Shown here piece by piece: positions 30,049-31,805 of a stretch of DNA of 35,596 nucleotides (its first letter is position 1; each line of letters starts with the position of its first letter). This DNA comes from a virus. Lineage: Duplodnaviria > Caudoviricetes. A program made the translations under genes and the position numbers. The notes beneath the pieces were generated by a model that was given only the letters and a program-made list of their open reading frames with translations, had not been told where the DNA came from and did no database searches. Where the stretch lies: IMG/VR virus record IMGVR_UViG_3300020181_000022, positions 1-35,596 of that record; one strand, 5' to 3'.

Positions 30049-31011
30049 TTATGTTTCAAAGCGAGCAACGATAGGTGCAAATGCTTCTTCAGTTAATTTA
30101 TCCCAATCGTACGCCTTATGTACGGACTCGGCCCGGTTGAAAGCATCCTGTGCATAATGATCAAATCCCTCTACCGCGTCCTCAATGCACCAAGCAAGAT
30201 CAATGTCTGATGGATGCAGCATTTCTCCTGGGTGTGTTTTAGGCCACGGGCTAGGGCCAAGCCGGGTTGCTACCACAAGATTACTATTCACCAATTCTTC
30301 ATAAGGTGCCCAGCCTTCTGTGATGATAACCGGCATACCGGTGCTCATAGCCTGTAGCGGAATCAATCCAAAGCCCTCACCAAATGACGGGTAGATCAAC
30401 ATATCGTGATCGTGAACAAGATCAACCATCTGCTCGGTTGTATATTCGTCTGTTATAACGTCTACATTGCCCAGGTGCTCCCAATCATCGATCCACGTTG
30501 AACCGTTAGCCTTAAAGGTTAAAGTTACCTGGTTGCGACTGTTTCCATAAAGCTGTACGAACGTATCAAATAAAAGGGGTCCTCCCTTGCGGACAGCAGG
30601 CTCTCCGATATGCAGCAGCTTAACCGGGCCGCTAGTGCTACGCTCTCGTGGCGTCCACACAGCAGAATCTACGCCGTGCTGATACACCTTTGCAGGGAAG
30701 CCTTCGGCCTCAAACCAACTAGCGATTACAGGGGATGGAGTCCAGAGTTCATCACAACCTCGTAACAAATATTTCCAATTTCGAGGAAGGCGGGTTGACT
30801 CCCAGGGCACGTAGCCAATGTGGTATGCGTCCCGATTAGACCATTGCCAGTATTCAGGCTGGCAGAAAGCAAACTCAACCGGCGCGGTTTCGTCAAATAA
30901 TTTAACCTCATGACCTAGACGCTGGAGAGATGATACAATCTGATAGGAAGCCTCTCCGAAGCCGTTGGCTCTTTGGAGGTTTTCAATTGGCACACACATA
31001 CTGATCTTCAT
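30049..31011 (-). CDS. Glycosyltransferase (GT4 / group 1)
   Basis: PWEST, DELWTPS, HGVD, RKGG and YPSFGEGFGLIPLQAMSTGMPVI. Confidence 0.92.
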   Translation of the reverse strand: MKISMCVPIENLQRANGFGEASYQIVSSLQRLGHEVKLFDETAPVEFAFCQPEYWQWSNRDAYHIGYVPWESTRLPRNWKYLLRGCDELWTPSPVIASWFEAEGFPAKVYQHGVDSAVWTPRERSTSGPVKLLHIGEPAVRKGGPLLFDTFVQLYGNSRNQVTLTFKANGSTWIDDWEHLGNVDVITDEYTTEQMVDLVHDHDMLIYPSFGEGFGLIPLQAMSTGMPVIITEGWAPYEELVNSNLVVATRLGPSPWPKTHPGEMLHPSDIDLAWCIEDAVEGFDHYAQDAFNRAESVHKAYDWDKLTEEAFAPIVARFET

Positions 31012-31039: not shown

Positions 31040-31282
31040 ATGCCAAAGCAACTAACGGTTGCGGAAACCAGAAAAGTTCTTGAAAGAAATGCTTCCTTCT
31101 GGTTTCCTCGCATGGAGCTTTTAGGTGCCTCTAAAAGAAGGCGCAAAGCATATGAGCAAGAGCAAGATGCTCTTGAAATAGAACACAATATTAGATGTCA
31201 GAAGCTTCGAGAAATTGCCGAGCTTCCTGATGAAGATTTGCAATGGCTGCTCGATAGCGGCTGGTCGCCGTTTGACTCATAA
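31040..31282 (+). CDS. Hypothetical protein
   Basis: 80 aa, SD AGGGAG; first gene of the divergent plus-strand block. Confidence 0.7.
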   Translation: MPKQLTVAETRKVLERNASFWFPRMELLGASKRRRKAYEQEQDALEIEHNIRCQKLREIAELPDEDLQWLLDSGWSPFDS

Positions 31283-31300
31283 AAGTCAACGTGCTAAAGT
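31272..31300 (+). promoter_or_regulatory. Promoter P1
   Basis: TTGACT-17-TAAAGT with a TGn extension. Confidence 0.55.
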
Positions 31301-31306
31301 ATATTT

Positions 31307-31760
31307 AGTTTCAACCGGTCCCCTAGTCACGGTTGCAAAGGACACAGATTTCTGCTACAATGGTAGAGAACTACAGCCCCAAGCAGCCTGACTAGGGTCT
31401 TCGAAAGAAGAAGGTTGCTTGGGGCCTTTCCTTTCCCAAGACTCTGCTTTCCTGGAATAATGGAACCCTAGCCATATGGACGACAAGCGGAGGTCAGTGT
31501 GGGCCAGCACTTATCAAGGCTATGGTGGAGCAATCTCCGAGAAGTGTCAATGTCCTCTCGGCTAGATGGTTTTCTTTTATCCCGTTCTTCTGCCAGGCTC
31601 CACCACCAGGCCGGTAAATAGAAAGAAGAACCCACTGAGTTAGTTCTCAAAGAGACTCGAAACGGTGGACCGAGGATAGGAGTGTGTGACTGTGAGGCTC
31701 CTATCGTGGCATTGACGCAGACTCTGACAGCGAGAGAAAACCTTTTACCCTTCTCTCTAG
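31307..31760 (+). ncRNA. Candidate large structured ncRNA with pseudoknots
   Basis: About 520 bp gene-free gap with at least nine complementary segment pairs, several with G-U pairs on the plus strand, downstream of two promoters. Confidence 0.6.
31333..31361 (+). promoter_or_regulatory. Promoter P2
   Basis: TTGCAA-17-TACAAT with a TGn extension. Confidence 0.7.
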
Positions 31761-31805
31761 GCACGCGGGGGGGAGAATGTACTATTCTATCTAAAAGGAG
31801 ATAAG

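Follow-up and report, generated by a model that had tools for sequence, protein, structure and literature searches.

The 35.6-kb virus fragment analysed here (in full, the window; CheckV completeness 28%) contains a conserved non-coding element of about 340 nt, which we named element A. Comparison with its relatives supports a structured, multiply pseudoknotted fold that is favoured on the plus strand and has no Rfam family. In related phages the corresponding slot is filled by an unrelated element B, and in some satellite phages by genes which look like replication initiator genes. The slot is probably a replication module. Judging from sequence and by analogy to known systems, we see roughly even chances that element A is a replication origin that operates without an initiator, at which a read-through RNA would form an R-loop at the G run near the 3' end.

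Element A lies at the point where the genes of the window diverge (Table 1): the minus strand carries the genes for portal, capsid and tail, for ribonucleotide reductase and for a glycosyltransferase, and the plus strand a set of small genes. Between the start of the glycosyltransferase gene and the leader of element A, there is an 80-aa open reading frame (ORF) without family match (31040-31282); the BE phages which were opened have no annotated gene at the matching position. According to a preliminary description made from the sequence of the window, the gap harbouring the element was the sole long gene-free one. This was mistaken, since positions 698-1790, at the convergent end of the structural genes, likewise contain no ORF of 50 aa or more. 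The same description had set the RNA apart from tRNA, tmRNA, RNase P and group I/II introns, and here our scans agree: ARAGORN detected no tRNA or tmRNA gene in the window, and the proposed search of the window against Rfam (Rfam 15) gave no match at the gathering threshold, the best E value being 0.34 for unrelated miRNA and snoRNA models.

In a distant blastn search, the stretch was matched in 23 Streptomyces phage records with 67-88% identity. In total, 15 further distinct copies of element A were found, which are distributed across cluster-BE Streptomyces phages, four satellite phages and the Rhodococcus phage Trina; scans with patterns and searches among satellites contributed to this number. 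In the annotated cluster-BE (Boydwoodruffvirinae) records that were opened, the element is present in the same gap, adjoining the glycosyltransferase gene. The aligned set comprised 13 distinct copies with 49-98% pairwise identity, and two copies from satellites and one from Trina were added later. BLASTN with the Trina copy matches only Trina and does not connect this phage to the other copies of A; the 64-67% identity between Trina and the others in global alignments is inflated by lenient gaps and was left unused. Four chance pattern matches (L023, L024, L025 and L029) had no full-length profile match and were dropped. A glycosyltransferase-anchored scan of viral contigs revealed no further element A, and the element was found neither in a pattern scan of GTDB genomes nor in a plasmid collection, nor in 401 sampled Streptomyces genomes, a sample without positive control. 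Two Loccivirinae phages (Sham and BillNye) and the phage Weasels2 are also without it. None of the sequencing runs with element A is on record as RNA; the four examined are contigs, three of them probably DNA and one guessed to be RNA. In Trina, two annotated hypothetical genes overlap the homolog of A and the stretch after its leader (L016:4535-5280), and Jay2Jay gp45 and Targaryen gp42 likewise overlap the 3' half of A. The two Trina genes may be miscalls.

The reality of element A rests on this comparison, not on the folding of a single sequence. When the window sequence alone was compared with shuffled controls, a check put forward in the preliminary description, its pairing was not better than chance. 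The z-score of the minimum free energy was -1.93 for the plus strand (matched by 5 of 100 shuffles) and -1.05 for the minus strand. Five stems of -11 kcal/mol or below were counted versus a shuffle mean of 4.7 (reached by 30 of 60 shuffles), and two of -14 kcal/mol or below versus a mean of 0.95 (reached by 11 of 60). The helices were then read by hand from the sequences of the relatives and counted on a sequence-only MAFFT alignment (A2). In this alignment 94.9% of the cells are paired and 34 of 80 pairs have changed on both sides, values which none of 500 shuffles reached; slid controls gave 40-44% paired cells and 4-16 pairs changed on both sides. The measure of further pair types was unexceptional (74/500). 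Trina provides a fairer test, because the structure was derived from the rows of A2 and Trina is outside the model. All ten helices checked in it (picked by eye from the model alignment) are formed, including four crossing ones, which are kept with changed sequence. The five main helices of A form in all 15 other copies.

All 18 motifs named in the preliminary description were located where it had placed them, GGCUAG spanning positions 31560-31565, and a large part of its structure withstood the proposed covariation check in relatives. Both long-range pairings (31524-31531 with 31597-31604, and 31545-31554 with 31708-31717) are kept and covary. The latter has eight pairs in 13 of 13 rows, four of them changed on both sides, and nine of nine pairs in Trina. 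Four local helices (31537-31542/31556-31561, 31584-31591/31624-31631, 31632-31637/31663-31668 and 31675-31681/31699-31705) are also kept and covary. Two other helices, CUAGCC/GGCUAG and GGUUUUCUUUU/GAGAGAAAACC, are fully paired in the window and in none of 12 relatives in A2, and were rejected. The hairpin at 31376-31425, which had been counted as part of the RNA, is outside the conserved core and corresponds to the terminator-like hairpin of the upstream leader. On the named pairs, the cell counts (57 G-U versus 20 A-C) likewise favour the plus strand. Thus, the idea of a compact and multiply pseudoknotted structure held, while its proposed ends (31368 and 31760) had to be moved: the core starts at approximately 31432 and continues past 31760 through the run of seven G.

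The short hairpin of the 5' domain has a conserved loop of 9 nt (31453-31461), which we take to be T-loop-like, and CUAGCC is invariant in this domain. A second version of the 5' domain was detected in two helpers and one satellite (L021:1031-1110; L032:1160-1236, minus strand; L028:1030-1110). That this alternative domain is common to them suggests domain exchange between helpers and satellites. In the small pseudoknot, the crossing helix 31502-31505/31518-31521 is kept in Trina with a different sequence. The crossing helix 31682-31685/31763-31766 is near-invariant and was therefore only weakly tested.

Table 1. Features of the element A locus in the window.
Feature	Position	Strand	Description and basis
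Glycosyltransferase gene	30049..31011	-	Synteny anchor with cluster-BE phages
Promoter-like site P1	31272..31300	+	Sigma-70 type, extended -10; consensus scan
Leader hairpin	31314..31333	+	Loop 31321-31328 complementary to loop of terminator-like hairpin; shuffle test in relatives
Promoter-like site P2	31333..31361	+	Consensus match
Terminator-like hairpin	31376..31434	+	14 bp, loop motif 31390-31397, weak pyrimidine tail; belongs to the leader rather than to A
Element A, conserved multiply pseudoknotted core (~340 nt)	31432..31775	+	Match to model R1 at 31431-31779 (229 bits, the training set of R1 including the window sequence itself); covariation
5' domain	31442..31492	+	Helix 31442-31449/31485-31492 around short hairpin; changes on both sides in 5/8 and 3/3 pairs
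Small H-type pseudoknot	31497..31521	+	31497-31500/31507-31510 crossed by 31502-31505/31518-31521; covariation
Central domain	31524..31631	+	31524-31531/31597-31604, hairpin 31537-31542/31556-31561, short helix 31567-31569/31593-31595, crossing helix 31584-31591/31624-31631; covariation
Long-range pseudoknot	31545..31717	+	31545-31554/31708-31717, from loop of central hairpin; covariation
3' domain, hairpins	31632..31766	+	31632-31637/31663-31668, 31675-31681/31699-31705, 31732-31738/31751-31757; covariation
3' domain, crossing helices	31632..31766	+	31690-31696/31722-31730 and 31682-31685/31763-31766; covariation
G run	31767..31773	+	7-10 G in 15 copies, 7 in Trina
AT-rich stretch after G run	31774..31798	+	25 nt; 72% A+T here, 72-84% in 15 copies

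The leader upstream of element A is a recurrent feature of the slot. Relatives have a promoter-like pair at the place matching P1, and a hairpin with a T tail, equivalent to the terminator-like hairpin of the window, precedes A, B and the initiator-like ORFs. The predicted kissing-loop pairing between the two hairpins of the leader differs in sequence between phages, and in 19 of 25 leaders no more than 5 of 100 shuffles were as good. No pairing that beats the shuffles was found in L020, Wipeout, L028, L089, L104 and MiniFlayer; in L020, the script picked the wrong hairpin. Of the five ORFs found in the slot, four are preceded by the kissing-loop leader, and so are A, B and the other non-coding stretches.

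Element B was found after the same leader in Tomas, LukeCage, NootNoot, EGole, BoomerJR, Wipeout and Coruscant. It is shorter than A (approximately 220 nt; L018:1316-1534, L017:1377-1612 and L084:1111-1334, all on the minus strand) and is the commoner slot occupant in BE phages. It is apparently pseudoknotted, with compensatory changes seen by eye; behind it come an AT-rich run and perfect hairpins with short loops. In eight relative loci and in four satellites, neither A nor B gave a match in Rfam. Together, the 24 records with A and the 62 with B equal the 86 records matching the upstream promoter region, RefSeq duplicates included, an agreement by count and not record by record; none of the A-list phages is among the B matches listed. 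Among ten helper genomes searched as a whole, A is present in a single copy in five and absent from the other five. Yaboi, which has A, and BoomerJR, which has B, are 98.5% alike, and screening this pair against six genomes revealed no ORF or protein co-segregating with A or B. A itself is replaceable, as sister phages can be grown on the same hosts with B in its place. The helper phage MulchMansion encodes a DnaB-like helicase, a primase, SSB and DnaE; in the large block of its annotation that was read (45-95 kb), there is no RNase H and no Pol I. MulchMansion also has a Ro-like protein, which prompted a reading of A as a Y RNA with Ro as its partner. This reading was dropped, since the motif pairing expected for such an RNA does not persist through the rows of A2.

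A capsid-anchored search for satellites yielded 25 satellite-like loci. The slot was read in ten of these loci and in Mulchroom and MiniFlayer, giving 12 satellites; the remaining 15 loci (L086, L093-L101, L105-L109) were scanned for A and B only, with no match. The slot contains element A in four satellites (L019, L085, L087, L090), another non-coding stretch in three (L088, L089, L104), and an ORF of 260-370 aa in five (L091, L092, L102, L103 and MiniFlayer, gp13). All five satellites with an ORF harbour three to five iteron-like repeats, most of them partly palindromic, which are spaced by 21-22 bp inside the gene; the exception is L102, where repeats with spacings of 17 and 22 bp are located just upstream of the ORF. 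One uniform scan for repeat arrays was positive in four of these five, in none of the seven satellites with a non-coding slot, and in none of seven large-phage sequences; several of the loci scanned are partial. An initiator ORF with tandem iteron-like repeats is absent from the window, six BE genomes and the four A-bearing satellites, in which profiles of two satellite ORF families also revealed no counterpart.

Three of the five ORFs (L091, L092 and L103) look like initiators as far as sequence comparison and structure prediction can tell. Half of the homologs of the L091 ORF (11/22) match PHROG 391, annotated as 'replication initiation O-like', with a best E value of 3.3e-8; for the L091 ORF as such, no named PHROG was matched, and a PDB sequence search with its family returned nothing useful. 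The L091 and L092 ORFs show weak, sub-threshold matches to HTH_36. The L103 ORF has weak matches to initiator PHROGs and a confident N-terminal model resembling winged-helix folds, the matches in the fold search all having E values above 0.01 and corresponding mostly to MarR-type regulators. In L091:1160-1245, L092:720-800 and L103:3330-3440, a segment upstream of the initiator-like ORF looks by eye complementary to the ribosome-binding region, and the sequence suggests a possible translational control of the putative initiator by this upstream segment. The L102 ORF and MiniFlayer gp13 have no initiator-family match; they have a common C-terminal segment (E 4e-12). The gene of the hypothetical protein gp13 (L040:11911-13017) contains five palindromic repeats of 22 bp and, behind them, AT-rich 12-mers, and its features suggest an unrecognised initiator with the origin inside its gene. 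A cassette matched to that of the helper, with MiniFlayer carrying B like MindFlayer, was also considered and rejected, as MiniFlayer has neither A nor B and has gp13 with its repeats instead.

Mulchroom carries the leader together with A. According to three blastn searches spanning its genome, A is the only Mulchroom DNA that matches BE helper phages. In the accessible text of PMC10690885, Mulchroom and MiniFlayer are described as having no obvious replicase or primase. Detrended skew minima are located inside A in Mulchroom (GC and AT) and in L085 (AT only, the GC minimum being elsewhere), and beside the repeats in MiniFlayer; the skew turns in helpers and Mulchroom coincide with the switch in gene direction and are confounded by it. 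The three further non-coding stretches (L088:2056-2400, L089:2995-3290 and L104:3000-3200) follow the same leader. Those of L088 and L089 have plus-strand fold z-scores of approximately -2.1 and -2.5, and no relatives in the phage collection.

The preliminary description had mentioned an origin element as a minor alternative. This has become the favoured reading, since in related satellites the slot is occupied by an initiator-like ORF with iteron-like repeats. If the slot is a replication module, A must supply the origin without an initiator. Leader, element A, G run and AT-rich stretch follow each other, and the order of promoter, folded transcript, rG run and AT-rich stretch is like that of the R-loop origins of ColE1 and T4, which favours a model based on a read-through RNA. 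In this model, the transcript would read through the terminator-like hairpin, the kissing-loop leader would set the amount of read-through, and the read-through transcript would adopt the pseudoknotted fold predicted for the core. The RNA would remain hybridised to the template at the 3' G run, thereby opening the AT-rich stretch behind it, which is predicted to be the unwinding and RNA-to-DNA switch zone. More tentatively, and in analogy to ColE1 and T4, the 3' end of the RNA might prime DNA synthesis, or the displaced strand might allow loading of the phage DnaB-like helicase and primase. By this route, A-bearing satellites could use the replisome of the helper. The 25-nt AT-rich stretch also contains ribosome-binding sites. 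Further, the first Gs of the run are able to pair with the invariant CCC at 31581-31583 (9 bp in Trina), and with such an internal partner the run may be purely structural. No G run longer than four was found in the other non-coding slot stretches of satellites and none was seen in B, so that a single R-loop scheme would not account for all occupants of the slot. Also speaking against the model, A is lacking in Sham, BillNye and Weasels2, it is replaced by B in sister phages, and no RNase H or Pol I is annotated in the block of MulchMansion that was read. A bolder version appears doubtful to us: A would be an RNA initiator, a fold of ribozyme size that stands in for a Rep protein and captures the displaced strand, loads the helicase of the phage or cuts its own end for priming. 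Under this version, a single replication slot would freely exchange a protein initiator for any of five or more unrelated RNA folds, namely A, B and the three elements of the satellites, and A would give satellites access to the replisome of the helper.

At one hand, the slot may be an origin at which A acts as single-stranded DNA: folded on the displaced non-template strand, it would be read by helicase or primase, and transcription would merely open the duplex. Single-stranded DNA was raised for plasmid-associated motifs in the accessible text of PMC5737381. The swapping at the slot fits this explanation equally well, covariation cannot separate RNA from single-stranded DNA, and B ends in perfect short-loop inverted repeats. 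Nevertheless, we regard it as unlikely, since G-U pairs, short helices, kissing loops and T-loop-like loops are typical of RNA rather than of single-stranded DNA, and the 57 G-U cells, several helices of 3-4 bp, the kissing loops and the conserved T-loop-like loop would suit RNA better. On the other hand, A could be a trans-acting large non-coding RNA, a cargo like ROOL, GOLLD or raiA behind a strong early promoter, which is swapped like an accessory gene and serves host takeover, counter-defence or interference with the helper. Large ornate RNAs are known in prophages (PMC5737381, accessible text), and the ornate fold of A, the variable downstream ORFs, the exchange of A and B between phages that are 98.5% alike and the lack of a co-segregating protein are compatible with such a role. 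However, it would not account for the fact that A never co-occurs with an initiator-like ORF and repeats in the 12 satellites, for BE records apparently having exactly one of A and B by count, or for the missing 3' terminator. With A found neither in plasmids nor in the 401 sampled Streptomyces genomes, this role is improbable in our view.

The position of A at the head of a long operon, in helpers as well as in satellites, could also be explained by a cis-acting transcription element similar to the put and EAR antiterminators, which would modify RNA polymerase for the downstream operon. This is quite improbable: A is located after the terminator-like hairpin and not before it, and satellites with an ORF in the slot have the same downstream operon without A. 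Least of all do we expect a ribozyme or intron relic without a role in replication, despite the size of A, its density of pseudoknots and its long invariant single-stranded motifs, as there is no match to an intron, RNase P or ribozyme family of Rfam, and B is not an empty site.

ColE1 is not known to encode an initiator of its own. For the lasting RNA-DNA hybrid by which synthesis is primed or the duplex opened, it requires a promoter upstream and a stretch of rG (PMC4412123, accessible text). Element A is similar in having promoter-like sites upstream in the same orientation (31272-31300 and 31333-31361) and 7-10 G near its 3' end. It differs from ColE1 by its approximately six crossing helices, by the kissing-loop terminator leader which it follows, and by its occurrence in phages and satellites whose DnaB/DnaE replisome is either encoded or borrowed; no sequence, plasmid or Rfam relationship to RNA II or RNA I was found, and no equivalent of the antisense RNA I was identified. 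The T4 origins oriF and oriG combine a promoter with an unwinding element further downstream, at which the transcript remains hybridised, and the accessible text of the same source (PMC4412123) describes no conserved folded RNA for them. The promoter-like sites and the downstream AT-rich stretch at A may be comparable, although that stretch also contains ribosome-binding sites; the covarying fold of 340 nt between them is a difference. By analogy, A may work like the RNA-primed origins of ColE1 and T4 while being a member of neither.

Pseudoknotted motifs of 223-349 nt, namely ARRPOF, GEBRO and PAGEV, were tied to plasmid replication regions, and ARRPOF is present in a gene-free region supporting replication without a rep gene (PMC5737381, accessible text). 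Unlike them, A occurs in other hosts, is unmatched in the Rfam scans and gave no match in the plasmid collection. Prophages are a frequent location of ROOL and GOLLD, and raiA occurs in Actinobacteria (PMC5737381 and PMC12990946, accessible text). Element A is also large, ornate and rich in pseudoknots; however, it is shorter than ROOL and GOLLD, and it differs from all three by having no Rfam match and a fixed slot, where it alternates with an initiator-like gene. In initiators of the lambda O type, iterons inside the gene mark the origin. This likeness belongs to the alternative occupant of the slot, the ORF with its repeats, and not to A, which has neither an ORF nor an iteron-like array.

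No description of this RNA or of a cluster-BE origin was found in the literature covered; most subscription journals, supplementary files (including those of PMC5737381) and large viral candidate-RNA catalogues were outside its scope, and an unnamed listing is possible. The accessible parts of two papers on Streptomyces satellites do not mention a non-coding or intergenic element. The fold of A itself appears to be undescribed so far. It is a large ornate phage RNA fold without Rfam family which, unlike most orphan large RNAs, comes with a specific hypothesis on its function. The accessible text of PMC10690885 leaves open by what means Mulchroom, in which no replicase is obvious, is replicated; the proposed origin offers an answer, and it also gives cluster-BE phages a candidate for their origin. 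If this is true, RNA folds and protein initiators would be interchangeable modules at one slot, which would also bear on ARRPOF-like motifs.

Last, two further loci deserve mention. The divergent gap of Weasels2 (L015:4093-4503) contains A-rich short direct repeats and neither A nor B, and is possibly another type of origin. In Mulchroom, a short inverted repeat downstream of A (L019:9842-9863) is also present in element B of LukeCage-like phages.
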